Shown: piece after piece, positions 6,374 through 45,769 of the stretch
Layout: the number at the start of each line of letters is the position of its first letter
Numbering within the stretch: the stretch's first letter is position 1
DNA from: an uncultured Gammaproteobacteria bacterium
Lineage (GTDB): Bacteria; Pseudomonadota; Gammaproteobacteria; CAWCPV01
Assembly: GCA_963797555.1 (NCBI GenBank)
Contig: CAWCPV010000014.1
Span: forward strand, 192,001 to 256,000
Direction: 5' to 3'
Length of the DNA: 64,000 nucleotides
Program-made: the position numbers and the translations under genes
Notes under the pieces: generated by a model
The model's database searches: none
What the model was told of the DNA's origin: nothing
The model's input: the letters and a program-made list of their open reading frames with translations, nothing else

Positions 6374-6416
6374 CGCCTCTGGGGCCGAGACGAACGATCG
6401 AAGGAGGACGAGAGCG

Positions 6417-15900: not shown

Positions 15901-16071
15901 CGCCCAACCCCCTGCGCAGGGGATCGCGCCCGCGGGTTCCTTCGGCGGACTGTCCGCGAGGCGGGAATACTGCCCGGAAACGCTGCGGGATGGGGAGAAC
16001 CGCCTTGAGCGCAAAATCACGGGCTGCGTGCGGGCACGGGGAATTGCGCCGTCCCCTGGGTCGGCATGAAC

Positions 16072-16728
16072 TCACCTAGTCGGGAGGGCGGTTTGCGCGT
16101 CCCCAGTGAGACGGACAAGATCCTCACGAATCTTTTCCAACTCGTCACGAAGCTTGGCCGAGGCGCCAGTGAGCACGTCTGTCCTGGTCTCGTCCGCACA
16201 GCGTTTCAGTTCCCCAGCGATCTCTTTGAGCGTCTGGCTTATCTTGCGTGCCTCGACCCATGCCCTTTCAATCCCCCGCTCAATGAACTCTCGAAACAGC
16301 ACCAGCTCGTCATCATTGAGCTGGAGAAGCTGCTCCGTATGCTGGCCGGCAGCGTCACGGGGTTGCACCTCGAACCCCTCGAACCAGAGGTGCGAGGCCA
16401 TCACATGATGGCACGGATTGGGAATGAATATGCCCCGCTCGCCCTCTACTTTGCTGGGCCAATAGTCCGTCTTGCGGGAGTTGCAGTTGCCGCAAGCGTA
16501 GAAAAGGTTGGAGTAATTCGTCGTTAACTCGGGGAACTTCGCCGTTGGCTTGTAGTGGTCCACGCCAAAGGTGCCGCCGAGGCCGTCAGGAAGGCGGCAA
16601 TAGACGCACTTTCGGTCGAACTCATCGCGGAGGTACGGCTTGTATGATTTGTACGACCTGTACTTCTTCGGGTTCAGCCGTCTGACATGCTTCCATTTCG
16701 GATAGCGAAACGGCGTGGGCTGCTTCAC
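16072..16728 (-). CDS. HNH endonuclease
   Basis: CVYC...VDHYKP...NLFYACGNCNSRK. Confidence 0.85.
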   Translation of the reverse strand: MKQPTPFRYPKWKHVRRLNPKKYRSYKSYKPYLRDEFDRKCVYCRLPDGLGGTFGVDHYKPTAKFPELTTNYSNLFYACGNCNSRKTDYWPSKVEGERGIFIPNPCHHVMASHLWFEGFEVQPRDAAGQHTEQLLQLNDDELVLFREFIERGIERAWVEARKISQTLKEIAGELKRCADETRTDVLTGASAKLRDELEKIREDLVRLTGDAQTALPTR

Positions 16729-17234
16729 TTAAGGTCTAGCTCGTCCCTGACCTTCTGGTGCCGCTTGGCTGCCTGGTCGAGCCGTTCAGCGACCTCACCC
16801 AGGGCGGTCCATTGGTCCTCGGTCACTGGCGGCAACAATTTCCGAAGTCGCTCGCTCAAAATCGCCAGCCGCGCCTCATGCTCGGTGGATGCTCCCTGCA
16901 CGTACATCCTCGCCAGCAGCCGCACTCGCGCAGTGGCGCACCGTTCGGCTTCGTTATCCCCGAGTGGCTCTCGTACCTCATCCGCTGGCTGTTGCGGCGA
17001 GGACGTTAACGCTCCCTCGAACTCTGCTTCGACAGATGTTGTCTCAATGCGGATGGAAGACAATCGACGCAATACGTCCAGAAAGTCGGCGACACGCGTT
17101 GAAGTGCGTTCCTGTGCCAGATCCGCACTCGGTTGTCTCGTTTCGCCGTCGCTCCCCTTGAAGGCGTAGAACAGCGTCTGGTCGGGTTCCAAAGAGTTTG
17201 GCTGCCAACTGTAGGCTAGGGTGTAGGAGGCCAT
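16725..17234 (-). CDS. hypothetical protein
   Basis: ORF packed between the TIGR04255-like and HNH genes; 4-nt overlap with HNH. Confidence 0.65.
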   Translation of the reverse strand: MASYTLAYSWQPNSLEPDQTLFYAFKGSDGETRQPSADLAQERTSTRVADFLDVLRRLSSIRIETTSVEAEFEGALTSSPQQPADEVREPLGDNEAERCATARVRLLARMYVQGASTEHEARLAILSERLRKLLPPVTEDQWTALGEVAERLDQAAKRHQKVRDELDLK

Positions 17235-17241
17235 CTCTGCT

Positions 17242-17985
17242 CTACCGCTTCTTCATGGCTTTGCCCAGGTATGCCAGCGCTTTGTCGCCAATGGCCCAAC
17301 GGAACAACTTGAAATTCTGCGCGTTAAAGGCGACGAGAAAGTTCTCGAGTTCCTTAACAGCTACTTCCTCCCGATAGAAATCGAAGTCAAGGATATAGGA
17401 CCGGTTATCTTCGAGCCCATCCTCAAGACCGTGCCGGAAGTTGTACTGACCGTCAGTGGTCGCCCCGCTGATGTTCTGCCAATATTTCGCCGGGTTTCCC
17501 AACACGTTGTCCGTGAGAGGTTTGATGATGTCGTCCCGCAACCAGCCGGATGGGTCACCCTTGACGGGAATGACATTTACATACCGAAGCCCAACTCGCG
17601 TGAAAAAGTCGGAATCAATAATTTCAGCAGCCTGCTGCACCACCCACGCAAGACGCTTCAAGAAATCCTCGAAGTTCTCGTAGGCCTGTGTCTCCAGCGC
17701 GAACGCCGACGACCGGAGAGACACCGTCCAATCCCGCTTCAGCGACCGAAAAATGTACCGAGCTTCGGAATCGCGGCCCCCGGAGGGATGGAGACTGATG
17801 TCCGCAGCGCGCTCGTAGTGAGGGTATAACTTCCGCAGTGCCTTCTGGAAGGCAGGCGGGCATTCCTGTTCAAGTTCAAGTAGGGTGGGAAACCGCAGTT
17901 CACAAACGGTAAGGCGAATGAAGTTGCGTTCAAACTCCACGCGCTCGACATCGGGCACATTCAGATATCCGTCAGGTCGAGTCAC
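17242..17985 (-). CDS. TIGR04255-like protein
   Basis: VCELRF near N-terminus, TRVGLRYVN, YILDFDFY; GGAGAGG RBS. Confidence 0.7.
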   Translation of the reverse strand: MTRPDGYLNVPDVERVEFERNFIRLTVCELRFPTLLELEQECPPAFQKALRKLYPHYERAADISLHPSGGRDSEARYIFRSLKRDWTVSLRSSAFALETQAYENFEDFLKRLAWVVQQAAEIIDSDFFTRVGLRYVNVIPVKGDPSGWLRDDIIKPLTDNVLGNPAKYWQNISGATTDGQYNFRHGLEDGLEDNRSYILDFDFYREEVAVKELENFLVAFNAQNFKLFRWAIGDKALAYLGKAMKKR

Positions 17986-19419
17986 CGCATGGTCCTCTCC
18001 GATTGCACCACACCCTCCAGGCGGAGGTGATGCTCACGTCACCTGGCAAGGTTACTGGGCACTCTTCTCACAAATCGCTAGTGTTGTCAACGACCCTTTC
18101 AGCCCTTTCAGGACAGCCATCCCCTTTTTAGCCACGATTGGCCCCACTGCTCCTGGATGGAGTCGACGCCGGGGTCTCAGGTCACACAGCTTGACATGCT
18201 TGCTGAACGCCCTGCGTTACTCGCCGGCGCCATCATCCTGCTTGCTGTGAGGCCGCTGATGGACGCTCGATCACCTGTGACGGCTTCACCTGCTAGTCCA
18301 CGGTGGCCTTCGTGGTGCGCTTGAACTGGACTGGGACAAGCCACTGCTGGGCGGCCACGAGATCGTCCTCAGAGAGGGTTGTCTTGTTCTTGAGTGTGTG
18401 ACCGGCAGTCTCGGTCGCAGTAACCCGAGTGATGCCACGCGCAGCTCAAAGCGACGCCGATATGGGCTCCTCCATCGGACACCAGCGAAAGAGGAACTCC
18501 CAGTCGCCCAAGCATCGGGATCGTAGGAAGGACAGGAAATTCGAGAACACTATCCTCGCAGGAGCGTACTGCCTCGGCACCGATCGGTCAAGTTTTTTGC
18601 GTTGACAGCCTTTTTGGGGTGGTGGGGCCGGCGGGCGACGATCCAGGGAAGTCGCGAAGCGCTGAGCCGAGGAGCCTGTGGTAGCCATACGAGACCAAGT
18701 GCGGGGTCCGTCGACGTTCCGCTACTATGGCGGGCCGTCGGCCAACCGGGGGTTTGTAAACGGTGCTGGATTCTCGCCGGGGGGGCCGACGGACCTCCGA
18801 CCGCCAACCGCGACGGGCCGCCCCCGGCGCTACCTCGACGGCCTGCTGCTCAAGCGGGTCCAGGACCGGGAGGGTTTCAAGACCCGAAACCGCCTGAACC
18901 TCGGGTCCTCAAAGGTCTGTGACCGGCCGGTGGCGGGCCGTCGGGGTGGGTGGGCAGGGGACCTGTCCTTCCCTGGGGCACGCACCCCGGTCACTGGCTC
19001 CGCCCGCCCCCCGAGGTCTGGCTGGGCGCCGCCGTGGCCCCCCTCGCACAGGTGGCCGGGGCGCACCGCCATCCGAGGTGCCGCAGGTGATATTGTCCCT
19101 TCCAATCGCGAGCTCGTCACGGCACAGGCCTTCGCTCTCTGGGCTTCTGAACACATTGCGCGCCCTGCGTTCCCCAGCACAATGGCGCCCAGACGCCGAC
19201 CTTGAGGTCGACTTCACCAGGCGCGTCCGTCCTCACCTCGCCGGGTTGCCGACGGGTACCAAACAGGCGTGGCCATGCTGCCGACGACGGCCGCCGGCGC
19301 GTCAATGGGTGCGACCCGCGCCCCTGCGGCGTCCACGCGCTCATCGCCGATGCCCGATTGTCGCCCCGCGGCGCTTCAGGTAGCTTGTCAACTCTGACTC
19401 GGATGTACGGAGGTCCGGC

Positions 19420-29263: not shown

Positions 29264-31638
29264 ATGGACCGGCAAGGGCGCAAGCGCGCAAGAGTATTCC
29301 TGAGCTACAGCCACAAGGACGAGAAGCCCTACCTCGAAGAGACTCCGGCCCTATCTCAAGTCGCTCGCCGACCGCGGAATCATCGACCTCTGGAGTGATC
29401 ATCGGATCGCCCCGAGCGAGCGCTGGCACGATGAGATCCAGTCCGCCATCGAGTCGGCGGCGGTCGCGGTGCTCCTCGTCTCGCAGGATTTTCTCGCCTC
29501 CGACTACATCCGTCAGTACGAGGTGCCGCCGCTCCTGCGGGCGCGGGAGCAGGAGGGTGTCCCGGTCGCCTGCCTGTTCGTCAAGCCCTCCCTGGTGAAA
29601 CATGAGGGCATGGTCTTCCACGCGGGTTCTGGGGGAAAGGCGGTCAGGCTCACGGAGTATCAGGGCCTGAACAGCCCCGACCGGCCGCTCTCGGGAATGG
29701 ATGACAACGAGCGGGCGAAGGCTTACGTGGCGGCGGCGGAGTGGATCGGCAAGCTGGTTGCGCAGCCCGCCCCGCAGGCCGAGTTCCGGCAGCCGCCCCC
29801 GGAGGAGCGGCGGGATCTCCAGGTTCGCCTGGAAGTGAGGCGCGGCTATCTGGAAAGGCTCTACTTCTGCGCCGGAGCCAAGATCACCGAGTACCGCTCA
29901 CCTTGGCCGCCCCTTCGGGATCGGCTCGTCGAGTGGGCAAACCGCGGTCCCCATGCCTTGCGAACGGGCCTGACGGAGGCGCTGTTCCAGGGACTGTTCG
30001 GCGACGATCGAGGCGCCGAGACGGTTCTGTCGGCAACCTTCGAGTCCGGCCCGGGCCTCGTGCCGCGCCCGATCCTGCATCCGGTCAGGGTGCGCATCGC
30101 GACCGACGAGCCGGCGCTGAATATCCCTGCCGTGGCACCACACCGCGTGGGCGGGCGAACGGCTCTGGAACAGTGCCGGGTGGACCTTCGAGCTGACGGC
30201 GTCCGGCCCGGAGGCGGAAGCCACCGGGCCTTCGGATGTCTTGCTCAAGGCGCCGTGCCCGGTGCTGCTCGTGGCTTTGAGCGCCGGGAACGAAGGCGCG
30301 CCTGCTCTGGATACTCACTTCCGGGCCGTAGAAGAGATCCTGCATCGGGCCTGGCCGGCTTACACCGAGCCGCCGCGCGTGGCCCGCGACGCCCGGACGG
30401 TCGAGCACGCCTTCCGCGAGCGAAGGCCACGCATTGTCTGCTGCTTCGGCGAGCATCTCGATCTGGACGGGCGGGCGCTCGCCGAGCTGCTGCGCGTGTC
30501 CTGGGGCGCGCAGCCGCCCCAGATTCTCCTTCTCAGCCTGGTGGGAGACCGTCTGAGCCAGGCGGCCGAGGCTCTGGCCGGGCTGCATCCGGAGGTTCCG
30601 CTGATTGCCCTGCAGTGCTCACCGGATGCGGCCGAGCTGCAGGCCTCGGCCCTGGACTGGCTGCACACGCTGCTGGAGGGCGGAGAGGACGCCGACCCGG
30701 TCTGCGCCTTGCACGAGTTCGGCGTCGAGCGGGCGGTGGTGTGGGGCGCTTACGGGCGCTGGCGCACCCGCACCGCCGGCGAACCGCCACGGGAGAAGCT
30801 CGCCCACTTGCTCCTCGACCGAAGGCTGCAGCGCGCGATGGTTCGCAGCGCTCTCGACGAGCTGGTGCACGAGGGCGACCGGCGCCTGTGCTGTCTGCTC
30901 GGCTACGGCGCCGAGGGAAACCTGGTCGACCGTCTGGGGGCGCAGCTCTTCGAGCACCTGCGTCGCACCGCCCAGGACGTGGCCCACGTCAGCCGGCTCA
31001 CGCTGAGCCTGCCCGAGGGGAAGCAGTTCGATGCCGGCACCGTGGAGGCTCAGGTGCGCCGGGATCTCGGCCTCGGCCCCCGCACCTCTCTGGGGGAAGC
31101 CCTGCGCGACCGGCGGCCCCGCATCCCCCACGGCAAGCGGCCCGTGTTGCTCCTCGACTGGGGGGTGCGCGGCGATGCCCGAGGTGCACTCGCGACGGGG
31201 GGCGTCACGGCATGGCTCGAGTTCTGCGCCGGTCCGTTGTGCGCCGAGTGCCCTCCGGATTTGCGGCTGCTGTCGTTGCTGTCCATCGAAAGCGCCAGCG
31301 AGAAACATGACCTCATCAAGGCCCTGGTCAACGGACTGCGGGGCGAGCCGCGCTTCCGGGACCGGGCGTTTCGTGTGGAGCTGCTCGAGCCCTTGGACCG
31401 GGTGTGGCCCAACGATCTCGCCGATTTTCTCGACGGTCGCGGCAACTCCTCCTGTCCGGACGATCTGCTCTCGGTCATGCCCGACCTCATCGTCGGCGAC
31501 ACTGGCGGCCACTTCGAGCGGACCCTGGCGCGCATCGAGGAGGCGGAGCGGCGAGGCTGGTACGATCTGTACGACGCGCTCCGCGGGCGGGAGCCGGTCC
31601 CGGCGAAGGTTACTGTCCAGGAAGAGGGCACGCTCTGA
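29264..31638 (+). CDS. TIR + CHAT-like + inactive STAND (iSTAND) protein of a ternary conflict system (apparent frameshifts near 29340 and 30125)
   Basis: VFLSYSHKDE / LWSDHRI / LLVSQDFLASDYI TIR; RVRIATDEPAL-PW CHAT-like segment; LLDRRLQR...LCCLLGYG iSTAND-like C-terminus. Confidence 0.7.
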
Positions 31639-31676
31639 TCGGGGTCTGGAAAGGTTAGCCAACGAGAGAGGGCGAG

Positions 31677-32633
31677 ATGGCAGATTTTCACTTGGTGCGT
31701 CGCGACGTGGATCCCATGCGCCACGATTCCGCGGCGGCCCGCTCCAGGCTCGGCGCGCGCGTGCTGCCGAAGGCCGTCACCGATTTCGGCGCCTCGGCCC
31801 CCTATTTCCAGCTCGACCTCGGGCTGGAGACGGCCATCAACATGGCGCTCGCGGTGGGGGCGCCGCTGCTACTCACCGGCGAGCCCGGCACCGGGAAGAC
31901 CCAGGTCGCCTTCTTTCTCGGCTGGTACTTCGACATCCGGGTGTTCGCGTACCAGGTGCGTTCCACCTCGACCTCCGAAGATCTCAAGTACGACTTCGAC
32001 GCCGTGGGCTACCTGCGCGCTTTCCAGCACCCCTCGTCCGAAGAGCGGCGGCGAGAGCGGCACGAGTTCCTCGCCGAGAAGGCGCTTTGGAATGCCTACC
32101 GGTGCCAGAGTGACGCGGTGCTGCTCATCGACGAGATCGACAAGGCGCCGCGGGATTTCCCCAATGACCTGCTACAGGAGCTGGACCAGCACCGTTTCAA
32201 GCACCCGTTCAAAGAGGAGTATGTCGAGCCGGCCAGCGGCCGCCCTCCGGTGGTGGTCATCACCAGCAACGCCGAGCGGCGCCTCCCGGACGCCTTCCTG
32301 CGCCGCTGCATCGTGCACCACATCGAGCTGACGGAGGAATTGGTCGAGCGGGCCGTGCAGGCGAGGATGGGTGCGAAGGACAAGGACTTTCCCGTCGATC
32401 TCGACGAGGACGTCCGGCGCGAAGCTCTCGGACGGTTCTGGGAGCTGCGGGACCCGGCCCACAACCTCCAGAAACGACCGTCCACGGGCGAGCTCCTGGT
32501 CTGGCTGACCATCCTGAGCGCCCGCAGTGTCACTGCGGAGGAGCTGCGGGGCAAGGCGCTCGCGCACCTGCCCGGGATCGAGGCCCTGGTCAAGGACCGC
32601 GACGACCTGAGGCAGCTCCGCAGCCCGGCGTGA
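31677..32633 (+). CDS. MoxR family AAA+ ATPase
   Basis: LLLTGEPGTGKT, LLIDEIDKAPRDFPNDLL, ITSNAERRLPDAFLRRC. Confidence 0.9.
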   Translation: MADFHLVRRDVDPMRHDSAAARSRLGARVLPKAVTDFGASAPYFQLDLGLETAINMALAVGAPLLLTGEPGTGKTQVAFFLGWYFDIRVFAYQVRSTSTSEDLKYDFDAVGYLRAFQHPSSEERRRERHEFLAEKALWNAYRCQSDAVLLIDEIDKAPRDFPNDLLQELDQHRFKHPFKEEYVEPASGRPPVVVITSNAERRLPDAFLRRCIVHHIELTEELVERAVQARMGAKDKDFPVDLDEDVRREALGRFWELRDPAHNLQKRPSTGELLVWLTILSARSVTAEELRGKALAHLPGIEALVKDRDDLRQLRSPA

Positions 32634-34842
32634 GCCAGCGCCAGGCCATGCCTGGAACGCGGAAGGCCACGGCAGTTTCTGCCCACGAGTCCGGGTCCGC
32701 CCTCGCGGGCCTCGCCTCGCTCCCCGCCGACCTGGATGTCCTCCTGCACGCCCTGCGCGTCGAAAACATCCCGGTCGGCATCGGCGAGCTGACTTGGCTC
32801 AATCACGCCTTCTCCCTCGGCCCTAGCCTGGACCGCGAGCAGCTCCGGGCTTTGCTGGCGTGCGCTCTGGTCAAGGACCCGCTCCGACGCCCCGACTTCG
32901 ATGCTCTGTTCGACGACTGGTACCCGGAGATCCAGACCGGGCGCCCTGCGGCGGAGGAGGAACAGCTGGCGCAGGCAGGTGCACCCCCCGCGGGCAGCAA
33001 GGAAACGCAGGGCGGGGTCCGAGGCGGCCCCCCCGACGAGAAGGCTCCAACGGCACAGCAACCGCCGGAGTCGTGGCCCAGGCGGCTCGCCGCCGTCCTG
33101 TGGCGGCTGGCGGAGCTGGCCGGGGCGACCGCCGGCGCCACGCTGGCGCGAATCAGAAGCCTGGCGAGGCGCCGGGTGTTCTGGCTGAGCTTGGTTCTGA
33201 TGATCGAGCTGGTGGCCGCCGGTGTGTACCACTACCACTGCCCGAGCAGGCCCGGCCCCGTGACCCGCCCGCCGCAGCAAGAGCGCAAGCAGGGTCCGGC
33301 GCCAGCGCAAGGGCTTCGCACGGTGCGCGCCGCGCCGCCCCCTGGCGCAAAGCCCTTCGCGCCGGTGGACTCCGGTGCGCGCTGGGCCGGAGCCGGTCTG
33401 GGTCTGCTCGCCTTGACCCTGGCCGCCATTGCCGGTGGGCGCTACCGCCGCCAGCGGGCGTTGCCGGCGCCGGTCCCGGCGGTCGGGGGGCCGGCCTGGC
33501 TGCCGCGGCTGCCGCCGGAGGCGAGCGGACCCGAGCTGCTGGATGCGGAGCAGCTCCGCACCCTGGTCTGGGGGATCGGCCGCTTCGTGTCCGAGGACCT
33601 CACGGACCAGATCGATCCCGAGCGGACGGTCGCCGCGACCGCACGGGCGGGAGGGATGCCGGAGCTGCGTTATCGGCGAGCGGTCTATCCACGGGAGGTC
33701 TGGCTGTGGCAGGACCAGTCGGTCGAGGACCCGGGCGTCGAGCGGCTCGCCGACGAAGTGGAGGTCAGCCTGGAGCGGGCGGGATTGCCGGTGCGCCGGG
33801 GTTGGTTCGCCGACCTCCCGGAGGTGGTGCGCTGCGAGGAGCGGCGAGGAGCGGGCGGGCCGGCCGGTTTGGCCGCCGGCCATGCGGGTCGAGATTCTGG
33901 ACTGGCTGGCGCGGGCAGAGGCCCCGGGCGGGAGCGTGCCGGTGGCGGCGCAGAGCCTGCTCGGCCGGGCGCTCGCCTTCTGGCGGGGGCGCTGCCGGGA
34001 GGAGCGGTCGCGTCGGGAGAGGGCCGAGAGCCGGCTCCACCCCTTCCAGGGCACCGCGGCGGAGCAGCGGCTGCGCCTGGAAGAGGCGCTGCTCGATTTG
34101 TGGGCGCGTCCCGCCGAGGCCGCCATGGCGCTGTACGGGCTGTTCCGGGGCGCCTTCAGTGACGAGGTGGAGGCGCGCCTCGCCACCTATGCTCCACGGG
34201 ACTGGGGCCCGCGTCGGGGCCGGGTGCGGCTGCCCTGGCGCTGGTCGAGCCAGCCGGAGAAGGTCCGCTGGCTGTACGGGAAGATGGGCCTGGGTGGGGA
34301 GGGAGTCCTGGCGCAGCGCGGCGGCCTGCGCCCCTCGGCCACGCTGGGGGCGGCGCTGGGGCTGTGCCTCGGGCTCGTGGCGGCGGCCGGCACGGTCGCC
34401 CTGCGCCCGCCCGGCCTCGAGGAGTGGACCGACCCCGAGAGCGGCATTGCCTTCCTGCGCATCCCCGGCGGTCGCTTTCTGATGGGCTCGCCCGGGACCG
34501 CACTCCGAGGCCGACCCAGACGAGCGGCCACAGCACGAAGTCAGGCTCGGTCCCTTCTGGATGGCCCGCACCGAGACCACCAACGCCCAGTACCGGCGTC
34601 TGCACCCTGAGCACGAAGGTGCAGACGAGTCGCCGGCGGTCGGCGTCACCTGGGCCGAAGCCAAAGCGTTTTGCGAGCGGTTCGGCTTCTACCTGCCCAC
34701 CGAGGCCCAGTGGGAAGACGCCGCCCGAGCGGGGACCACCACCCGCTGGTCCTTCGGAGACGACCCGGCCGACCTCGGGTCTTATGCGTGGTACAGCGAA
34801 AACTCCGGCTCGCGAACCCATCCGGTGGGCACGAAGGCGCCC
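32630..34842 (+). CDS. vWA/CoxE-like, membrane-spanning, FGE-sulfatase (CLec) domain protein; frameshifted and C-terminally truncated
   Basis: ALRVENIPVG...FDALFDDW, IDPERTVAATARAGG, TM helices, IPGGRFLMGSP, ETTNAQY, LPTEAQWE, HPVGTKAP; lacks the GLYDMxGNVWEW and RGGSW/GFRC end. Confidence 0.7.
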
Positions 34843-34999
34843 TCGAACAGATGGCGCGGCGTCTCGCCGGGATCAGACTACTGCCCCGGACGTGGCAGGC
34901 CGCCGAGTTCGTTGGAAACTGGGGTAACCCAGGACAACCGCAGCGCGGGGTACTGGAACGAAGGCGGCGCTCGCTGCGCGCCGCGGTGGAAGACAGCCT

Positions 35000-35355
35000 C
35001 GAATCTGGCTCCACAAGAGGAGCACGGACGACGCTACTCGGTGCGGGACCTCAAGGCCTTTCAGGTGGCGTTGCCGATCTATTGGGAGGCGAGCCAGGCG
35101 CTCGGGGAGGACCACGTGGCGACTCGTGCCCTGCGCCGCGTGCTCGAGCAGCTCGCCCGCGGGTGTCACCGCTTCGAGCGCACGCAGAAGGTCGAGGCTT
35201 ATGGTCAGGCCCGGGACGACGCCAGCCTGGCGGCCTGCGAGCTGCTGCTAACAGGGTCGCCCGTAGCCGAAAGCCTGATGGAGCGGGTCGAGCAAGAACT
35301 CATGCCGGCCTTCGCGGGCCTGATGCGGCGAGCCGACAGGCGCCGGGGTGTGTAG
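35000..35355 (+). CDS. four-helix-bundle (IVP/Avd-like) domain; true start uncertain
   Basis: VRDLKAFQVA...LEQLARGCHRFERTQKVEAYGQARDDA resembles the 23S-IVP four-helix-bundle pattern. Confidence 0.5.
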
Positions 35356-35364
35356 GCCTCCTCG

Positions 35365-35700
35365 ATGGGCGACGAGCGCCGCGCCCCGCTGTTCACCGAT
35401 GCCTTCGCGCTGTGCGAGTGGCTGCTCGGGCATCTGGATGAGGAGCCGGGGGTCCTAGCGCCGGCATTGTGCCGCAATGCCCTTTCGCTGCTGGAGGCGA
35501 TCACCTTGGCGCTCAAGGGACAGTTGCGCGAGGAGCGACTGATCGAGGCGGACGAGCGGCTGGTGGCCCTGCGGGTACAGTTGCGTCTGGCGGCCGGCAC
35601 CGGCCGGCTCAGCGAGCGCCAGGCCCTGTACGCGCTGGAGATCGCGGACCGCATCGGCCGGCAGGTGGGGGGTTGGCGCCGGGCGCTGGAGCGGGCATGA
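35365..35700 (+). CDS. avd: DGR accessory variability determinant (Avd-like)
   Basis: 111 aa helical protein ending IGRQVGGW, directly upstream of TR and RT. Confidence 0.8.
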   Translation: MGDERRAPLFTDAFALCEWLLGHLDEEPGVLAPALCRNALSLLEAITLALKGQLREERLIEADERLVALRVQLRLAAGTGRLSERQALYALEIADRIGRQVGGWRRALERA

Positions 35701-35732
35701 TTGGGGTGGGCAGGCCCGAACGATGCCCGAGC

Positions 35733-35861
35733 CAGGTGGACCGCGGGGGCTCCGCTTGGAACGACCCGAGGAATCTGCGCTCTGCGAACCGGGACAGGAA
35801 CGACCCCGAGAACCGGAACGACAACCAGGGGTTCCGTTGCGTGCGTGTTCCGGGCCGCCAA
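35733..35861 (+). ncRNA. DGR template repeat (TR)
   Basis: 129 nt, AAC-rich, between avd and RT; matches 37121-37249(-) except at 15 adenines. Confidence 0.95.
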
Positions 35862-36007
35862 CACACCGCCACTGGGCGCTGCGCAGGGCCTGCCTCGGCC
35901 GGGGTTGCGCCCCGGTATCCCGGGCCCGCCCGTTCTGGTAGGCCACCTGGCCGACGGTCCGGGCGGGCCGACCTGACCGGCAGTGTCGGACTGCCCCATT
36001 TTCTGCG

Positions 36008-37000
36008 GTGCGCAGGGTTCCCGCCGGCAGCTTCGACCGGCTGACCAGCCTCGAAGCGCTGTGGCGAGCCTTCCGAGCGTGCCGGCGCGGTAAGCGGCGC
36101 CAGCCGCGCATGGCTGAGTTCGATCTGGACGCCGACCGGCGTCTCTGCGCGCTGCAAAGGAATCTGGCTGCCGGGGTGTACCGACCGGACCCGTGGCGCC
36201 TGCGCATCGTGCACGACCCCAAGACCCGGCTGATCGCGGCCCCCTCCATCCGCGACCGCGTGGTCCACCGGGCGCTGCTCGACGAGATTGGTCCGTACTA
36301 CGAGCGCGGTTTCCTCGATCACTCCTATGCCTGGGGGACTGGCCGCGGTCCGCACCGGGCCGTGCTGCAGCTTCTCGCCTGGATGCGCCGCCACCGCTAT
36401 CGGCTGAGCCTGGACATGGCGCGTTACTTTCCGTCGATCGCCCATCCGGTCCTGAGCGCATTGCTGTTCCACAGGCTCGGGGATCCGAAGACACGCGCTT
36501 TGCTGCTCGGGCTGCTCGCCGCCGGGGGCACGGTGTACCGCACGGACCGGGCAGGGGAGGCGCTGGGCTTCGGCGGGTCGGCCTGGCCGGCCGATCGGGG
36601 TCTGGCGCTCGGCTCCTACCTCAGCCAGTGGTGCGGGAACTTCTACCTCGACGGCCTGGACCACTACGTGAAGCGTGAGCTGAAGGTGAAGGCCTACCTG
36701 CGCTACATGGACGATCTGGTGTTACTGGACGACGACCGAGCGAGACTGGAGGAAGTCCGAGCGGCGATCGGCGAATGGGTCGGGCGGGAGCGGGGGCTGG
36801 CGCTGAACCCCAAGCGCTGGGACGTGCTCCCGGCGCGGGAGCCGGTGGTGTTCCTCGGCTATCGGGTGAGCCCCGCGGGGGTCGCGCCGAGCCGCAAGCT
36901 GCGCCGGCGCATGGCTAGACGCCTGCGCCGAGCGGCGAGGCAGGGCACCGATGCGCTGGGGCGGACGCTGGCCTCCTACCAGGGGCTGTTGCTGTTCTGA
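36008..37000 (+). CDS. DGR reverse transcriptase
   Basis: PKTRLIAAPSIRDRVVH, LDMARYFPSI, GLALGSYLSQ (DGR-type GxxxSQ), YLRYMDD, FLGY. Confidence 0.95.
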   Translation: MRRVPAGSFDRLTSLEALWRAFRACRRGKRRQPRMAEFDLDADRRLCALQRNLAAGVYRPDPWRLRIVHDPKTRLIAAPSIRDRVVHRALLDEIGPYYERGFLDHSYAWGTGRGPHRAVLQLLAWMRRHRYRLSLDMARYFPSIAHPVLSALLFHRLGDPKTRALLLGLLAAGGTVYRTDRAGEALGFGGSAWPADRGLALGSYLSQWCGNFYLDGLDHYVKRELKVKAYLRYMDDLVLLDDDRARLEEVRAAIGEWVGRERGLALNPKRWDVLPAREPVVFLGYRVSPAGVAPSRKLRRRMARRLRRAARQGTDALGRTLASYQGLLLF

Positions 37001-37070
37001 ACGCGGTCGCCCGCGAGTGTCCACCTCGTGACACGCCGTGTCCTTTTGTCACTTCAGTGACAGGGGCGCA

Positions 37071-37093
37071 CGGGCGGCGCTTCGCGCCGCCCG
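37071..37093 (-). other. DGR target-recognition hairpin (10-bp stem, GAA loop on target strand)
   Basis: CGGGCGGCGC-TTC-GCGCCGCCCG perfect inverted repeat, starting 22 nt past the target stop codon. Confidence 0.8.
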
Positions 37094-37114
37094 AGAAAAC
37101 AAGGGGTCAAGCGG

Positions 37115-38156
37115 TCAAGACTGGCGGCCCGGAACACGCACGCAACGGAACCCCCGGTCGACGTACCGGTTCTCGGGGTCGACCCTGGCCCGGAGCGCAG
37201 AGCGCAGATACCTCGGGGCGTCCCAAGCGGAGCCCCCGCGGCCCACCCGACGAAGGCCGATGGCCGGCCCTGCCGGGTTGTCGGCTTGGCCGAATCCGTA
37301 TCTTCCGTAATAGTCCCAGCACCACTCCCACACGTTGCCCAGCATGTCGTACAGCCCCCAGGGGTTGGGCTCCTTTTCCGCTACCGGGTGGACTCTGCTG
37401 CCCGAATTACCCTCGAACCAGGCGTAGTCTCCCAGCTCGCGCTCGTCATCGCCGAAGAACCAGCGGGCGGTAGCCCCGGCCCGGACCGCGTACTCCCACT
37501 CCGCCTCGGTGGGCAGGCGGTAGCCGTTGGCGGTGCGGTCCCAGCGCCAGCGCGTGAGCACCTTACGGTAGCAGGGCCTGAGACCCAGCCGCTCGGAGAG
37601 GCGGTTGCAGAACCGCACGGCGTCGCCCCAGCTCACGTAGCTGGCGGGAAGCTCGCCGTCTTGCGGGTCGCTGTCCCACTCGGGCCGATTCTGCGGCCAT
37701 GACTTCCCGGTACAGCGCCCGGGTCACCGGCGTCTGGCCCATGAGGAAGCCGGCGACCCGGACCAGGTGCTGGGGCCGCTCGTCCTCGACTGCGGACTGG
37801 TCATCATCGGCGCTGCCCATCCGAAACTCGCCGGCCGGCAGCGCCACCATCGTCAGCAGCCCGGGGATGTCCTCCACCGCCGAGAAGGGGAGGGGCTGCG
37901 GAGGCGGCTCGGGGACGGGCTCGGGTACCGGTGCGACCACCGCCCGCCCGAGGAACGCGAGGGGTGCCGCCACGGCGAGGGCCGCGAACCCGAGCGCGAG
38001 CCCCGGAGCACCGCCCGGCTGAAAGAGGGCGAGCCAACCGGCGAGCGTTCCGAGGAGCGCCCCGACCGCGAGCCCCCAGAGGAAACCGACCTCTTCGAGC
38101 GCTCTCCACGCCTTACGGAGACGGGATGGCGCCGACGCTGCCAGGGTGCTTTTCAC
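37115..38156 (-). CDS. DGR target: membrane-anchored FGE-sulfatase/CLec protein (apparent frameshift near 37690)
   Basis: two TM helices, Pro-rich linker, LPAGEFRMGS, YRLPTEAEWEY, NPWGLYDMLGNVWEW, C-terminal VR. Confidence 0.9.
37121..37249 (-). repeat. DGR variable repeat (VR)
   Basis: encodes RVGRGGSAWDAPRYLRSALRARVDPENRYVDRGFRCVRVPGRQ; differs from TR only at TR adenines. Confidence 0.95.
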
Positions 38157-38215
38157 TTGCGGCTAGCAGATCCCAGCGACCGAAGTGTATCGAACCTTGT
38201 CTCCATTGGGCTGAG

Positions 38216-39059
38216 TCAGCCACTGCGGGCATGCTCATACTTCTTCAGCAGGTAGCGGGCGATCCCGGCGCCGGCCGCGTTGTGAGAGGCGAAGAACAGA
38301 TAGTAGATGGTCGCATTCCTGCGATTGCGCATCGGGATCGGTTCCGGCACCTCATTGAAGCCGGCCACCTCCTGCAGCCGCTTGCGGAAAGCACTGGCAA
38401 CCTGCCGGTTGCCGGCGGTCTTGATCAGCTCTTCCTCCCCGAACAGGGTTCTCTGGGGTGTATAGACGATGTTACGCCAGGAATCGTCGCCCCAGAATCG
38501 GGTCATCCGCTGCAGGTCCGCAGCATCTACGCCAGCCGGATTCAGCCACAAGGCATTCCGGTTGATATCCATGATCGGAAAGTTCAGGAACTAGCTCGAC
38601 GCTGCGCATCTTGGCGGCATGAGCGAGCACCTCCCAGCTCACGCTGAGGCCATAAGGATCGAGCAGGCACAGACCACGCTTGTAGTCCTCATATCTGACC
38701 TTGGGAAACACTTGGTCCAGCAGAACACGATTGCAGTCCCCCTCGTAGATGAACACCTCGGGGCGGTCCCCCACCAGCTCCCGAAGGTTCGCGATCTTGG
38801 CTCCGTCCAGGTCGATCAGATGCAGCTCCCGGAACGGAGGCTCCACGGCCAGGGCGTTCAGCGGACTACCCGGCACCAGTTCTCGCGTAGTCTTGGAGAG
38901 GTGGATGCCGGCCCCTGCGAAGGCGTCCACGTAGACATGCTGAAGCCGCGGCTGCCGCGCGAGAATCGTGGAATATGCCTTGGCATACTCGCTCACGATA
39001 GTCAGCTTGACCTCGGACCAGTAGTCGATCTCGTCGAACCGCAGAGGCGCGGAGCCCAT
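38216..39059 (-). CDS. tcmP: three-Cys-motif partner protein TcmP, SAM-methyltransferase-like (apparent frameshift near 38590)
   Basis: WSEVKL, YVDAFAGAG, GSPLNAL, GDCN, LLDPYG, YYLFFAS. Confidence 0.8.
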
Positions 39060-39148
39060 GCGTCTCCCTCCCGTTGGTTTCTTTCTGAGGCCGGGATTGA
39101 CTCCCGCACAGAAGGGTACTATACGGGAGTACAAAAGGAGAACAATGG

Positions 39149-39901
39149 ATGAGCGAGCGAAGCTCCATCGAGTGGACCGACGCCACCTGGAATCCCGTTC
39201 GGGGCTGCACCAAGATATCCCCCGGGTGCAAGCACTGTTACGCCGAGACCTTTGCCGACCGGTTCCGTGGTGTCCCGGGGCACCCGTTTGAGCAGGGCTT
39301 CGACCTCCGCCTGGTGCCCGAGGTACTCCATCTTCCGCTGAAGTGGAAGCGGGGACGCCTGATCTTCGTGAACAGCATGTCGGACCTGTTTCATGATCGC
39401 GTCCCGGACGACTACATCGGGCGAGTCTTTGGCGTTATGTGCGCGGCGCCGCAGCATCAGTTTCAGATTCTGACCAAGCGGGCCGAGCGGCTGGCCGCGT
39501 TTACCCGTACCGAAGCAGTGCCATCGAATGCTTGGATTGGCGTGAGCGTCGAGAACGCTGATTACAAGTGGCGCATCGCCTACCTTCGACAAGTCGACAC
39601 ACGGGTGCGTTTCTTGAGTATCGAGCCCTTGTTGGGCCCGGTCGGTGAACTGGATCTCGCTGGTATCGCCTGAGTAATCGTGGGCGGCGAGAGCGGCCGA
39701 CGCGCGCGGCCTGTCGAGGCGGAGTGGGTGCGGGACGTTAGGGAGCAGTGCTTAAACGCCGGTCTGCCGTTCTTTTTCAAGCAATGGGGTGGCCGACGCA
39801 AGGCGCGTGCCGGACGAGAGCTCGATGGTCGTACCTGGAACCAAATGCCCCTCGGCGTCCCCGTTCATCGTTCCTCAGCCCTCTTCGACTCGTGCAGCTA
39901 G
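39149..39901 (+). pseudogene. DUF5131 (phage Gp37/Gp68-like three-Cys protein) with in-frame TGA at 39671-39673
   Basis: IEWTDATWNPVRGCTKISPGCKHCYA, FVNSMSDLFH; [11 protein letters not shown] where the family has W; FFFKQWGG. Confidence 0.85.
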
Positions 39902-40166
39902 TCCCCCACCCACGAGATAAAATCGGGATGCTAAACTTATTTCTCAATAGGTTGAGGCAACCTGTTGAGGAGGATAGTGATGAAGAAGCGCTATATCGTG
40001 CAGTTGTCCGCCGAAGAGCGTGATCGGCTGGAAGGTTGGGTGAATCGGGGGCGGGAGGCGCCTATCTATAGAGCGACAATTACGTTGACCGGTTGGCGAC
40101 AACTACTTTGTCCGGTTGATCGGCCACACTGGCGGCGTTCTGACATCCGATGCTTCGGGGGGAGGG

Positions 40167-41696
40167 ATGGCCGTCACACCGCAACAGGTCAAGGTCTATA
40201 TGTCACAGAGAACCGCAGGTAAGAACCAAGTAACCGCCGCCGCCAAGGCGGGTTTCTCGGAGCGCACGGCGCGCCGTCTTGACGAGCGGGACGAGCGTCG
40301 AGCACCGCGGGGCGCGCGGCGGTATCGAACGCGCCGCGACCCCTTTGACACCGTGTGGGACAGCGAGCTGGTCCCACTGCTTGAGCACACCCCGGCACTG
40401 CACGCGCTGACGCTCTTGGAAGGGCTCCAGGAGCGCCATCCGGGCCAGTACCCGGACAAGCTATTGCGCACCTTGCAGCGCCGGGTGAAGGCCTGGCGGG
40501 CGGCGCATGGACCCGAGAAGGAGGTGATGTTCCCACAGCAGCAGGTCCCGGGACTGCGGGGTTTGTCGGATTTCACCGTGCTCAAGGACGTCACCGTCAC
40601 CATCGCCGGCGAGCCGCTCGCCCACCGCCTCTACCATTTCCGCCTGGCCTACAGCGGCTGGTGCACGGTGCGGGTGGTGCTGGGCGGGGAGAGCTTCACG
40701 GCGCTCGCCGAGGGGCTCAGCCAGGCGCTGCTGCGCCTGGGCGGTGCACCGGCCGAGCACCGCACTGACAGCCTCTCGGCGGCGTTCAAGAACCTCTCGG
40801 CTGAGGCCCAGCACGACCTTGCGGCGCGCTACGCGGCGCTCTGCGCCCATTATGGGATGAGGCCGACGCGCAACAACCCCGGGGCCTGCCACGAGAACGG
40901 CAGCATCGAGTCACCCCACGGGCATTTGAAGCGCCGTATCGTGCAGCGCCTTCTGGCCCGGGGCAGTGCCGAGTTCCCCTCGGTGGCGTCCTACCAGGAC
41001 TTTCTCGACACCGTCACCGCCGCCGTCAACCGGCGTAACGCCACCGCCATCGAGGCCGAGCGCCCCCATCTGCGGCCCCTGCCGGTGACCTTCGCGGCCG
41101 ACTACACCGAGCTGTGGGTGAAGGTCACCACCGCCAGCACCATCACCGTGCGCTTGGTGGTCTACTCGGTCCCCGCGCGGCTCATCGGCGAGCGCCTGCG
41201 GGTGCACCTCTATGACGCCCGCCTGGAGCTGTTCCTCGGCACCGAGGCCCTGCTCATCCTCCCGCGGGTCTACCCGGCCCCGGGCAAGCGCCGGGCGAGC
41301 CGCATCGACTATCGCCATCTCGTGGGATGGCTGGTGAAGAAGCCCCGCGCCTTCTATCGGCTCCAGTACCGCGACGCCCTGCTTCCGGATGCCACCTATC
41401 AGCGTATCTGGCAGCATCTGGACGCTACCCTTGCGCCCGCCGACGCCTGCAAGCGCATGGTCGGCGCACTCAAGCTCGCCGCCGAGCACGAGTGCCAGGA
41501 GGCCCTGGGGACCCACTGGCTGGCCGCCCTGGAGCGAGGCCTATCGCCCACGCTCAGCGCCCTGCAACAACGCTTCGCACCGCCAGCCCCCGCGACGCTC
41601 CCTCTCGGCGCCACTGCTCAGCACCCGCTGGCCGACTATGACGCGCTCCTGCCCGCCACCCACCGCAGTGCCGCCGAGGAGGTGTGCCATGGCTAA
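40167..41696 (+). CDS. istA: IS21 transposase
   Basis: LRTLQRRV, SDFT, HRTDSLSAA, HENGSIES, YSVP. Confidence 0.92.
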   Translation: MAVTPQQVKVYMSQRTAGKNQVTAAAKAGFSERTARRLDERDERRAPRGARRYRTRRDPFDTVWDSELVPLLEHTPALHALTLLEGLQERHPGQYPDKLLRTLQRRVKAWRAAHGPEKEVMFPQQQVPGLRGLSDFTVLKDVTVTIAGEPLAHRLYHFRLAYSGWCTVRVVLGGESFTALAEGLSQALLRLGGAPAEHRTDSLSAAFKNLSAEAQHDLAARYAALCAHYGMRPTRNNPGACHENGSIESPHGHLKRRIVQRLLARGSAEFPSVASYQDFLDTVTAAVNRRNATAIEAERPHLRPLPVTFAADYTELWVKVTTASTITVRLVVYSVPARLIGERLRVHLYDARLELFLGTEALLILPRVYPAPGKRRASRIDYRHLVGWLVKKPRAFYRLQYRDALLPDATYQRIWQHLDATLAPADACKRMVGALKLAAEHECQEALGTHWLAALERGLSPTLSALQQRFAPPAPATLPLGATAQHPLADYDALLPATHRSAAEEVCHG

Positions 41697-42453
41697 CGCC
41701 GCCACCTTGCCCCTGCTGCTCAGGGAGCTGCGCCTGCCGACCATGGCACGGCTGTATCAACCGCTGCAAACCCGGGCCCTCGAGCACCACTGGAGCCTCG
41801 CCGACTATCTCGCCGCGCTCTGCGAGCACGAGCTCGCCGAACGCGAGCGGCGGCGCCTGGAGCGCCACCTCAACGATGCCCGCCTGCCCGCGGGCAAGAC
41901 GCTCCAGCACTTCGACTTCACGGCCAGCGCCGGGCTGAACCGCCAGCAGATCGTGCAGCTCGCCGAGGATGCCACCTGGGTCGAGCGCACCGACAACCTC
42001 CTGCTCTTCGGGCCCTCCGGCGTCGGCAAAACCCATCTCGCCGCAGCCATTGGGCACGGGCTCATCAGCCAAGGGGTGCGGGTGCGTTTCGCCTCGGCAA
42101 CCAGCCTCGTCCAGGAGCTTCAAACCGCCAAACAGGCCCTCAGGCTCAGCGATGCGCTCGCCAAGCTCGACAAGTACCCGCTGCTCGTCCTCGATGACAT
42201 CGGCTACGTCAAGCGCACCGAGATGGAAAGCTCCGTGCTCTTCGAGCTCATCGCCCACCGCTACGAGAGCGGCAGTCTCCTGATCACCAGCAACCACCCC
42301 TTCAGCGAGTGGGATGCGATCTTCCCCGACAACATGATGGCCGTCGCCGCCATCGACCGGCTCGTCCACCATGCCCACATCATCGAGCTCAACGGGCAGA
42401 GCTACCGAAAGCGCCAAGCAACCCGCAACCAGGAGGTATCGAACAAGAGCTGA
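41689..42453 (+). CDS. istB: IS21 helper ATPase
   Basis: GPSGVGKTHLA, LLVLDDIGY, AIDRLVHH. Confidence 0.93.
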   Translation: MANAATLPLLLRELRLPTMARLYQPLQTRALEHHWSLADYLAALCEHELAERERRRLERHLNDARLPAGKTLQHFDFTASAGLNRQQIVQLAEDATWVERTDNLLLFGPSGVGKTHLAAAIGHGLISQGVRVRFASATSLVQELQTAKQALRLSDALAKLDKYPLLVLDDIGYVKRTEMESSVLFELIAHRYESGSLLITSNHPFSEWDAIFPDNMMAVAAIDRLVHHAHIIELNGQSYRKRQATRNQEVSNKS

Positions 42454-45101: not shown

Positions 45102-45700
45102 AGCTAGGGCTGCTGCCCCTCTGGACACAGCCCCAGGAAGCTGATTCAATGCCCCCATCGTTCACCAGGTGACGAGGGGGAGCAGATGGAGAAGGGGTTG
45201 CCGAGGTGGTTGGGTGGGCGCGTGCTGAGCGCGGGGGAGCTTGAGAGCATACGGCGGGAGGCTCGGCTGGCGGAGCCCCCAGTGCGAGCCGAGGTGGCGC
45301 GGCCCGCATCGCTCGGACCACACCCTGGCGGACATCGAGGTGAGCGCCGTGCTGGCCCGCGAGGTGGACCCGCCCCAGGGCGAGGAGCCCATCGAGTGGC
45401 TGCGCTCCTCACCAGCCTCCCCGTCGAGACCGCCGAGCAGGCCCTGGAGAAGCTGCAGTGGTACCTCTGCCGCTGGCAAATCGAGGTGTTCTTCAAGATC
45501 CTCAAAAGCGGCTGCCGCATCGAGAAGCTGCAGCTCGAGACCCTCGAACGCCTGGAGCCCGCGCTCGCCTTCTACCTTATCATCGCCTGGCGGGTGCTCT
45601 ACCTCACCCTGCTCGGGCGCGACTGCCCGCAGATGCCCTGCAACGTGGTGTTCGCCGAGGAGGAGTGGCGCGCGGTGTATATCGTCACCAAGCGCCAGCG
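45102..45700 (+). mobile_element. internally deleted IS4 (IS50/Tn5-like) transposase relic
   Basis: EPIEW-LLTSLPV, WYLCRWQIEVFFKILKSGCRIE, IIAWR. Confidence 0.75.
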
Positions 45701-45769
45701 AGTCTCGCTGGAAATCACGCTGCTGTCCCGCCCCGACCGCGAGGCACGTGGCAGAATAACTCCCTGAGG

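Follow-up and report, generated by a model that had tools for sequence, protein, structure and literature searches.

To our knowledge, diversity-generating retroelements (DGRs) constitute the only system of targeted protein hypermutation known in prokaryotes. Tens of thousands of them have been catalogued, going by published summaries. The accessory gene avd is given as being carried by about 74% of DGRs, and its product, bAvd, is described as highly basic (PMC5758913). In phage DGRs, the reported hairpins have stems of 7-10 bp and are located 4-34 bp from the variable repeat (VR), according to the corresponding section of PMC3240598. Kaur et al. (2020; PMC7159879) also describe DGR-diversified FGS domains, in ternary conflict systems of the vWA-MoxR (VMAP) type. 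The “clade 5A” DGRs combine a MoxR-like ATPase, a long target devoid of domains, an HTH gene and a short second target composed only of a CLec domain (Doré et al., 2024; PMC10907252). The locus presented here is found within the window, i.e., the whole stretch of 64 kb of DNA from an uncultured gammaproteobacterium that was analysed, and is very probably a chromosomal DGR with a decayed upstream half, a past homing event and an apparently intact core.

Mutagenic homing has happened here at least once, as can be read from the two repeats. The template repeat (TR; 35733..35861, + strand) has 129 nt, among them 26 adenines, and the variable repeat (VR2; 37121..37249, - strand) makes up the final 43 codons of the short target before its TGA stop. 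The original prediction of 15 mismatches over 129 nt, each at a TR adenine, holds in an ungapped comparison; with the VR reverse-complemented, 15 of the 26 TR adenines differ and none of the 103 other positions does (seven A to G, five A to T and three A to C). The probability that all 15 mismatches fall on A by chance is C(26,15)/C(129,15) = 5.2e-13, and an independent repeat search recovered the same pair (I1, 126 nt, 90%). The edges of homology are sharp, non-A mismatches starting at 35732 and 35862, while the mismatch at 35861, in a third codon position and right on the border, may be an IMH/IMH* difference rather than a trace of mutagenesis. All 14 internal differences change an amino acid. 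Read in the frame of the target, 25 of the 26 TR adenines occupy codon position 1 or 2, seven codons are of the AAY type, and a stop can be reached by mutation in none of the 18 A-bearing codons; on this codon map, the adenines permit about 10^14.7 protein variants. These A-only differences are the signature of mutagenic homing and uphold the earlier inference of past retrohoming, and the absence of any non-A difference (0/103) suggests that little time has elapsed since the last homing. The genome-wide TR search that had been proposed as a check revealed neither a remote VR, i.e., TR-like DNA elsewhere, nor a closer TR in the assembly (5.35 Mb, with a completeness of 84.6%).

Regarding the reverse transcriptase (RT), the gene (36008..37000, + strand) encodes 330 amino acids in an unbroken frame, and the predicted GxxxSQ and YMDD motifs can be found as LGSYLSQ at residues 201-207 and YMDD at residues 233-236. 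The best solved relative is 8ub7_A in the PDB (E 1.1e-38 over residues 9-326), an entry whose title names the RT of a DGR ribonucleoprotein and whose GSxxSQ and YMDD motifs align with those of the window RT. Among the other RTs of the PDB, the best group II intron RT reached 2e-18 and a “retron-type” RT 8.5e-12. The best named NCBIfam model is a group II intron RT/maturase (E 1.9e-29), far under its 300-bit cut-off, and PADLOC returned generic RT models only. In the RT phylogeny, also proposed beforehand, the window RT falls into a clade with the RTs of four relatives, designated L022 to L025, in a tree devoid of labelled retron or intron references; this placing hints at a DGR grouping. L017, which occupies the same place as L015, was left out of the tree; L015, L045 and L046 were dropped with HSPs of less than 200 amino acids, and for L016, L019 and L020 no HSP was obtained at 1e-5.

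The avd gene (35365..35700, + strand; 111 amino acids) has the length expected of an avd and is sited, again as expected, between the target and the TR. Its predicted identity holds, with a Pfam bAvd match of E 2.7e-9 and 37.9 bits, about 2 bits under the 40-bit cut-off, and a match to NCBIfam DivGenRetAVD (E 9.1e-10) that is likewise below the cut-off of the model. The orthologues in L022 and L025, 62-67% identical, clear the Pfam cut-off with 46.8 and 45.3 bits, respectively, and the window protein aligns over its full length with those of three relatives. Neither phmmer nor a four-sequence Avd profile found a bAvd in the PDB by sequence. With 16 K/R versus 17 D/E residues, the window Avd is not basic. 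Between TR and RT lies a spacer of 146 nt (35862..36007, + strand), the core of which (35925-35967, with the CCCGCCCG...CGGGCGGG stem) is nearly invariant in an alignment of five loci, namely the window and L022, L023, L024 and L025. The stem is present in the MFE fold and, since it does not vary in sequence, provides no covariation evidence; the fold of TR plus spacer is no more stable than shuffles (z -1.0). Rfam gave no match at E<=1 in 34800-38400 and none at the gathering score in the whole 64-kb window, and a tRNA search of the window found none.

The short target runs opposite to the RT, in line with the predicted convergent arrangement. As for its description as an FGE/CLec protein, the VR at the C-terminal end and the two hydrophobic segments could be retained, but the gene is not one open frame. 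The C-terminal part (37115..37723, - strand) covers FGE/CLec profile positions 97-255 and ends in the VR, and the N-terminal part (37563..38156, - strand) comprises the hydrophobic segments, a Pro-rich linker and FGE profile positions 4-59. The C-terminal part matches Pfam FGE-sulfatase with E 8e-32, and the best solved relative of the target is the Treponema denticola variable protein 1, TvpA (PDB 2y3c, E 3.2e-35), on whose residues 259-291 the target residues 163-195 align. Both proteins have an FGE-type CLec fold with the VR at the extreme C-terminus. TvpA is a lipoprotein, whereas the window target has instead, N-terminal to the FGE domain, a pair of hydrophobic segments at about residues 23-47 and 48-78; by the positive-inside rule, these could even put the domain in the cytoplasm. 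As assembled, the two parts are in different frames, the shift lying between 37681 and 37698 at a site without a homopolymer. The target is colinear with its unbroken short counterparts in L022, L023 and L024, the break fits one extra base, and both halves keep a strong coding signal (GC3 0.8-0.94). Whether this one-base frameshift is a real mutation or an assembly error is a roughly even call.

On the strand of the target, 27 nt downstream of the VR, the intact hairpin that had been predicted was recovered (37071..37093, - strand), a GC-rich hairpin/cruciform with a 10-bp stem and a GAA loop. Its stem length was equalled in only 1 of 2000 shuffles, while the whole VR-flank fold is no more stable than shuffles (z -1.2), so that the local hairpin alone stands out. 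Stem length and distance are both inside the phage ranges given above, and the 4-nt GRNA loop consensus quoted for phage DGRs differs from the 3-nt G-N-A loop of the window lineage, which can be found at six of eight lineage VRs. Stems of 7-11 bp occur in seven of these eight VR flanks, all with different sequences. The spacer between VR and hairpin (37094..37120, - strand) holds two TTGACC repeats, the first of which contains the TGA stop of the target; for the window locus, two copies of TTGAY were reached in 1 of 2000 shuffles, and at least two are present in seven of the eight lineage VR flanks and absent after the TRs.

The upstream half of the locus has decayed in this genome. The element had been called complete; this could not be maintained, given the broken frame of the short target and, compared with the relatives, the loss of the VR end of the long target and of most of the HTH gene. 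An AAA_5-type, MoxR-like ATPase gene (31659..32633, + strand; Pfam AAA_5 E 5.1e-11) lies directly upstream of the long-target remnant and has syntenic counterparts in the AAA genes next to the L022, L023 and L025 long targets (50-65% identity), the one of L025 also matching AAA_5. The remnant of the long target, or target 1 (32690..~34855, + strand), was delimited by tblastn searches of the window with the intact L022, L024 and L025 long targets and extends over three frames, 32690-33841, 33846 to about 34556 and 34522 to about 34855, with about 165 codons lost at 33841/33846 and the last ~83 residues, including VR1, missing. Its FGE-sulfatase match is restricted to profile positions 74-174, and Pfam found nothing on the pieces upstream of that domain. 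No TR-like DNA that could be a remnant of VR1 was found in 34780-35010, where as high a score is reached by 211 of 300 shuffles; one frame bears a resemblance to “GYWNE”, which was treated as chance.

The HTH_17 partner gene is represented by its C-terminal four-helix-bundle domain only (34993..35355, + strand), which is fused in frame to the target-1 remnant in the ORF 34483-35355. The remnant corresponds to the C-terminal 118 residues (34993-35346) and shares 54-56% identity with the L022 protein (residues 78-195) and the L025 protein (residues 111-224). HTH_17 (PF12728) is found at the N-terminus in all three relatives scanned and not in the window piece, and an AF2 model of the L022 protein displays a wHTH at residues 1-40 and four helices at residues 88-187. 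As to a kinship of the C-terminal domain with Avd, BLASTP gave no alignment and hhalign a probability of 0.8%. Foldseek returned weak rows only (2gsc and 2rld; TMt 0.65-0.67), and VIA-align scored 2gsc with Z 13.5, 8ub7_B with Z 12.1 and 4dwl_A with Z 11.6, versus Z 14.0 for the unrelated bundle 1x8z. Since unrelated four-helix bundles score alike, the resemblance to Avd amounts to a shared fold only. PADLOC had no match for the AAA gene, avd, the ORF 30121-31638 or the long target of L025.

The closest relatives, whose RTs are 55-68% identical to that of the window, show what the locus would look like undamaged. They carry, in this order, an AAA ATPase, a VR1-bearing long target, the HTH gene, avd, TR and RT, and then a convergent short target with VR2; the AAA, long, HTH and avd genes are syntenic across the lineage. 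Two VRs are found in L022 (mismatches at TR A 16/17 and 16/18), L024 (14/14 and 21/21) and L025 (15/15 and 14/14), and one in L023 (16/16). In the intact L023, L024 and L025 long targets, FGE is the sole domain that Pfam finds, the intact proteins measuring 1152-1244 amino acids. From these relatives, the element can be inferred to belong to a MoxR-associated two-target lineage, and in its gene layout the window matches the “clade 5A” type as outlined in its source. The layout of the latter (e.g., Thiohalocapsa sp. PB-PSB1 DGR 8) is seen in L022, L024 and L025 and persists as remains in the window, where the MoxR-like AAA gene likewise immediately precedes a long target whose N-terminal part has no recognised domain. 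Multiple DGRs in one genome are described as typical of the clade, and five DGR-type RT loci can be found in this assembly. Unlike clade 5A members as described, the window has a long target without VR, an HTH gene without its HTH half and a single VR-bearing target; lacking the second VR that L022, L024 and L025 possess, it looks like a decayed derivative rather than a full member. DGR loci eroded beside transposons, as here, are mentioned in the same work, in which the gene layout is already in print (PMC10907252), and the window adds one more DGR of that sort.

With regard to the other described systems, the window shares with the Bordetella phage BPP-1 (mtd-avd-TR-brt) the order of Avd, TR and RT, mutagenesis of the A-to-N type, a VR placed at the 3' end of a CLec-fold gene and the GC-rich hairpin after the VR. 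In contrast to BPP-1, which resides in a phage and has its target upstream, the window element is chromosomal with a downstream, convergent target, which has an FGE-type CLec fold with a membrane anchor; furthermore, its Avd is not basic and its lineage has an extra HTH partner gene. The VMAP systems resemble it by an AAA/MoxR-type ATPase beside a long protein ending in a DGR-diversified FGS/FGE domain, but neither a vWA nor a VMAP domain was found by Pfam in the remnant pieces of the window or in the intact long targets of L023-L025. By homology to the Bordetella phage system, TR and the 146-nt spacer would be transcribed, and the RT together with Avd would copy TR into cDNA while misreading adenines. 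This cDNA would then take the place of the VR in which the short FGE/CLec-fold target ends; the GC-rich 3' end common to the repeats and the hairpin 27 nt downstream would presumably guide this homing step.

Public reads give a sparse view of the locus. Three soil-metagenome runs from one study contain 5-7% of the window's words, and no RNA run with the locus was found among the public runs searched. Exact read contigs (142-244 nt) cover 35300-35441, 35556-35706, 36844-37087 and 37182-37332 only, at very low depth. The last of these, a single low-depth contig of 151 nt, covers part of the VR and is identical to the window. No contig in the three runs covers 37531-37724, the region of the frameshift, and the remaining read pieces are less than 95% alike and belong to other FGE genes. 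Exact-pattern scans of metagenome contigs beside the frameshift and at the hairpin gave 0 matches each.

It is scarcely credible that the locus is no DGR at all and the repeat pair just a duplication that has diverged, with an unrelated RT of the retron or group II intron kind next to it. The NCBIfam match of the RT to group II introns, below its cut-off, and the generic PADLOC models would fit such a view, but the DGR RT 8ub7 beats the group II RTs by 20 orders of magnitude, 15 of 15 mismatches fall on A (P 5e-13), and Avd, the CLec target and the hairpin are all there. Moreover, the repeat pairs of the four closest RT relatives mismatch at TR A in the same way, with one or two exceptions per pair in L022 and none in the others. 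For a DGR, then, the alternatives concern its present state: judged by sequence, the core (avd, TR, spacer, RT, VR2 and hairpin) looks intact, and the element may be diversifying either a functional gene or a pseudogene, or may be idle.

A one-target DGR still at work, in which the frameshift is an assembly error, the short target is intact and still diversified, and only the upstream half is dead, has in our estimation somewhat less than an even chance. Both target halves are coding and colinear with intact orthologues, avd, RT, spacer and hairpin are intact beside a VR free of non-A differences, and ppsA in the window and a dnaE2-like gene carry single-base frameshifts as well. Yet other long frames, namely the uvrA region (1928 amino acids), dnaE (1190), carB (1076), secA (910) and PFOR (1213), as well as two aaRS-like frames (1021 and 848 amino acids), are unbroken, and assembly errors are thus not frequent everywhere; rpoB and rpoC, sought for the same survey, were not found in the 84.6%-complete assembly. 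The frameshift site is not a homopolymer, and of the genome's four further DGR-type RT genes, two are likewise out of frame. The neighbourhood further bears damage beyond a base-calling slip, including an in-frame TGA in a DUF5131 gene and the target-1 deletions, the damage to the long target and HTH gene being too large for base-calling errors. (Recoding of TGA, raised by the in-frame TGAs, was rejected, TGA being the commonest stop with 606 of 967 long ORFs.) It is more doubtful that the whole cassette is inactive, with the A-only pattern left over from the last homing before decay. Three components of the lineage are damaged, namely the long target, the HTH partner and the short-target frame, the locus adjoins broken mobile genes and an IS21, and the sole read-derived contig over the VR is without variation. 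However, the RT with its 330 amino acids, avd, TR, the spacer core and the hairpin are free of defects, non-A differences between TR and VR are absent, and a single low-depth contig cannot show invariance.

As a DGR with a decayed upstream half and an apparently intact core, the locus adds no new principle and is of modest comparative value. Together with its four relatives, it places full and eroded forms of the MoxR-associated two-target cassette side by side, and it illustrates that an avd-TR-RT core can outlast one target and the HTH partner. It also draws attention to conserved non-coding candidate signals at the target ends, i.e., the G-N-A triloop hairpins and the TTGAY repeats. While it can be hypothesized that the HTH_17 plus four-helix-bundle protein and the TTGAY arrays between VR and hairpin constitute a third, sequence-specific component marking or regulating target sites, we regard this as speculative and unlikely. 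If it were true, the window would be a natural loss-of-HTH variant, and its clean A-only VR would imply either an end of homing upon the breakage of the HTH gene or a partner that homing can do without and that acts in regulation. Should the HTH partner turn out to act in targeting or control, loci of this kind could serve as natural controls.

The template repeat (TR; 35733-35861, +), 129 nt long with 26 adenines, and the variable repeat VR2 (37121-37249, -), compared with it as the reverse complement without gaps, differ at 15 of 129 nt. All 15 mismatches fall on TR adenines (A to G 7, A to T 5, A to C 3) and none of the 103 non-A positions differs, so that the adenine-only differences claimed in the original prediction are borne out base for base. 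Were 15 mismatches placed at random, all would fall on A with a probability of 5.2e-13. The pair was found independently by a repeat search of the window (64 kb, 66% G+C, no N), and its homology has abrupt limits, non-A mismatches setting in at 35732 and 35862. In the target frame, 25 of the 26 TR adenines occupy codon positions 1 or 2, seven codons are AAY, mutation cannot turn any of the 18 A-bearing codons into a stop, and the number of protein variants within reach is about 10^14.7. Since no non-A difference has accumulated, the last homing into VR2 is recent on the scale of neutral substitution, which does not imply present activity. A genome-wide search with the TR returned neither another TR copy nor a remote VR in the 5.35-Mb, 20-contig, 84.6%-complete assembly.

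The reverse transcriptase (RT; 36008-37000, +; 330 aa) aligns over residues 9-326 with PDB 8ub7_A (E 1.1e-38), titled as a diversity-generating retroelement (DGR) ribonucleoprotein RT, as against 2e-18 for the best group II intron RT and 8.5e-12 for a retron-type RT in the same comparison; its motifs LGSYLSQ (residues 201-207) and YMDD (233-236) match the corresponding motifs of 8ub7_A in the alignment. The avd gene (35365-35700, +; 111 aa) matches Pfam bAvd with an E-value of 2.7e-9, but at 37.9 bits it lies below the cut-off of 40; its orthologues in the related loci L022 and L025, 62-67% identical, are both above it. With 16 K/R vs 17 D/E, this Avd is not basic, unlike the Bordetella Avd, which is described as highly basic in a passage of Wu et al. 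(2018; PMC5758913). In the short target, the C-terminal part matches the Pfam FGE-sulfatase domain (E 8e-32), and the closest protein of solved structure is Treponema denticola variable protein 1 (2y3c, E 3.2e-35), with whose C-terminal end the VR aligns. The locus is a true DGR and has undergone retrohoming, a claim borne out by the A-only TR/VR differences, the DGR-type RT, avd and the FGE target.

A scan of one genome per species recovered 25 loci with related RTs, the closest four being L022 (68% identity), L025 (64%; titled Planctomycetota), and L023 and L024 (both 55%). In L022, L024 and L025, each TR is accompanied by two VRs, one upstream and direct, the other downstream and convergent, with mismatches at TR adenines in 16/17 and 16/18, 14/14 and 21/21, and 15/15 and 14/14 cases, respectively; L023 has the downstream VR only (16/16). 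The common gene order in these relatives is an AAA_5 ATPase, a long target with VR1, an HTH_17 protein, avd, TR, RT and a convergent short FGE target with VR2, the positions of the long and short targets being exchanged in L025. The long target (1150-1250 aa) has as its sole Pfam domain a C-terminal FGE ending in VR1, and the HTH partner (190-230 aa) carries its HTH_17 domain at the N-terminus. In L023, the TR (4747-4873) is the in-frame 3' end of a long upstream FGE gene (1410-4976, +) and neither avd nor an HTH gene lies between TR and RT, an arrangement that looks like a recombination of VR1 by TR with about 1.1 kb deleted.

Neither the predicted completeness of the DGR nor its possible continued activity is established; the short target is broken into two frames as assembled, and the long target and HTH partner are eroded. 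The AAA gene is kept (31659-32633, +). The long target remnant occupies three frames (32690-33841, 33846 to about 34556, and 34522 to about 34855, +); at 33841/33846 it lacks about 165 codons that L022 and L024 have, FGE homology ends at profile position 174, and the final ~83 residues have been lost along with VR1 and its hairpin, no TR-like DNA that could be a VR1 remnant being present in 34780-35010. Of the HTH partner, no more than the 118 C-terminal residues persist (34993-35346, +), fused in frame to the long-target remnant, and the HTH_17 half is absent from this piece. These deletions are too large for base-calling errors, and the upstream half of the cassette is therefore truly decayed.

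An AF2 model of the L022 HTH protein, built from a 4-sequence alignment (mean pLDDT 78), predicts a winged HTH (1-40) and, as C-terminal domain, a four-helix bundle (88-187, pLDDT above 90). Fold searches with this model placed Avd (8ub7_B, Z 12.1; 4dwl_A, Z 11.6) together with 2gsc and 2rld among the top rows. That the partner is a second Avd is not demonstrated, as unrelated helix bundles score equally high and a profile comparison with the lineage Avd gave no match. An HTH-domain gene is mentioned in equivalent DGR loci by Doré et al. (2024; PMC10907252).

The short target is split over two ORFs in different frames, the N-terminal part (38156-37563, -) comprising two hydrophobic segments, a Pro-rich linker and FGE profile positions 4-59, and the C-terminal part (37723-37115, -) comprising positions 97-255 and the VR. 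A colinear alignment with intact orthologues across the junction places the shift between 37681 and 37698, where one extra base fits and the site is not a homopolymer. An error of assembly and a real mutation are about equally probable explanations. Single-base shifts also occur in ppsA in the same window and in a dnaE2-like gene of the genome, and L022, from a similar assembly, is likewise frameshifted in its long target, all of which favor an error; a real mutation is favored by six long frames unbroken elsewhere (1928, 1190, 1076, 910, 1021 and 848 aa), by an unbroken 1213-aa PFOR gene, by the concentration of breaks in accessory genes around the DGR (TcmP split; DUF5131 with an in-frame TGA) and by frameshifts in two of the genome's four other DGR-type RT genes. 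No public read spanned the site, nor did metagenome contigs yield an independent copy in two scans for exact patterns. Recoding of TGA is excluded, as 606 of 967 long ORFs end in TGA, more than in any other stop codon.

The ppsA gene, of PEP synthase/PPDK type (6354-8889, +), has its frameshift near 6760, with the N-terminal part in frame 6354-7196 and the remainder in 6754-8889. A second dnaE-like gene (contig C14, 279113-281666) is in two frames, split at profile position 335/336, and the main dnaE (C10, 110684-113752) is intact.

The best-supported non-coding feature of the element is a hairpin at 37071-37093 (-), 27 nt after the VR on the target strand, with a perfect 10-bp GC stem and a GAA loop; when the 100-nt flank was shuffled 2000 times, a stem as long arose just once. 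Stems of 7-11 bp, different in sequence in each case, follow seven of the eight VRs of the lineage (six with a G-N-A triloop, one with a GGCA tetraloop), the VR2 flank of L024 having none. In Bordetella phage, GC stems of 7-10 bp with 4-nt GRNA loops, 4-34 bp after the VR, are reported to be required for homing (Guo et al., 2011; PMC3240598). Between VR and hairpin, seven of the eight flanks contain two to four TTGAY repeats, mostly TTGACC (window 37094-37120; L022 3624-3667 and 6080-6110; L025 3636-3667 and 6080-6110; L024 3558-3591; L023 6104-6140), and the VR2 flank of L025 has one TTGAY; two copies were reached in 1 of 2000 shuffles of the window flank, and the repeats are absent after the lineage TRs. 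They might serve as an array to which the HTH partner binds, or provide stops in more than one frame. The TR-RT spacer (146 nt) has a core (35925-35967) with a CCCGCCCG...CGGGCGGG stem, nearly invariant across all five loci, which would fit a conserved RNA element that the RT-Avd complex requires; being invariant, the stem provides no covariation evidence. By homology with the Bordetella phage system, TR and spacer would be transcribed, adenines would be misread during cDNA synthesis from the TR, and the cDNA would replace the VR, guided by the GC-rich 3' end of the repeat, which is identical over 33 nt (35828-35860), and by the hairpin downstream.

Just beyond the DGR lie the TcmP/DUF5131 pair (38216-39901), with TcmP in two frames (38472-39134 and 38216-38572) and an in-frame TGA in DUF5131 at 39671-39673, the same frame running on to 39901; an IS21 element (40116-42453; istA 40116-41696, IstB domain in frame 41338-42453); and a Tn5-type transposase fragment (45108-45767). 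At 16001-18000, G+C falls to 0.575 vs about 0.66, and no high-GC3 ORF is listed. The assembly holds five DGR-type RT loci including this one, the others being C14:8037-8993, C6:61444-62352, C4:375330-376238 and C3:48588-49260, with A/T-biased repeat pairs of 11/11, 18/21, 18/19 and 7/7, respectively; the RT genes on C14 and C3 are frameshifted.

Two targets are reported in 13% of DGRs and avd in 74% (Wu et al., 2018). FGS-ended proteins of this sort have been assigned to MoxR-centered conflict systems (Kaur et al., 2020; PMC7159879), from which the present lineage differs in that no vWA or VMAP domain is detectable at the window locus or in the intact long targets of L023, L024 and L025. Judged by gene layout, the lineage corresponds to the "clade 5A" DGRs of Doré et al. 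(2024), who further report multiple DGRs within single genomes and the erosion of DGR loci beside transposons. The element is a DGR of an already described kind, here partly eroded.
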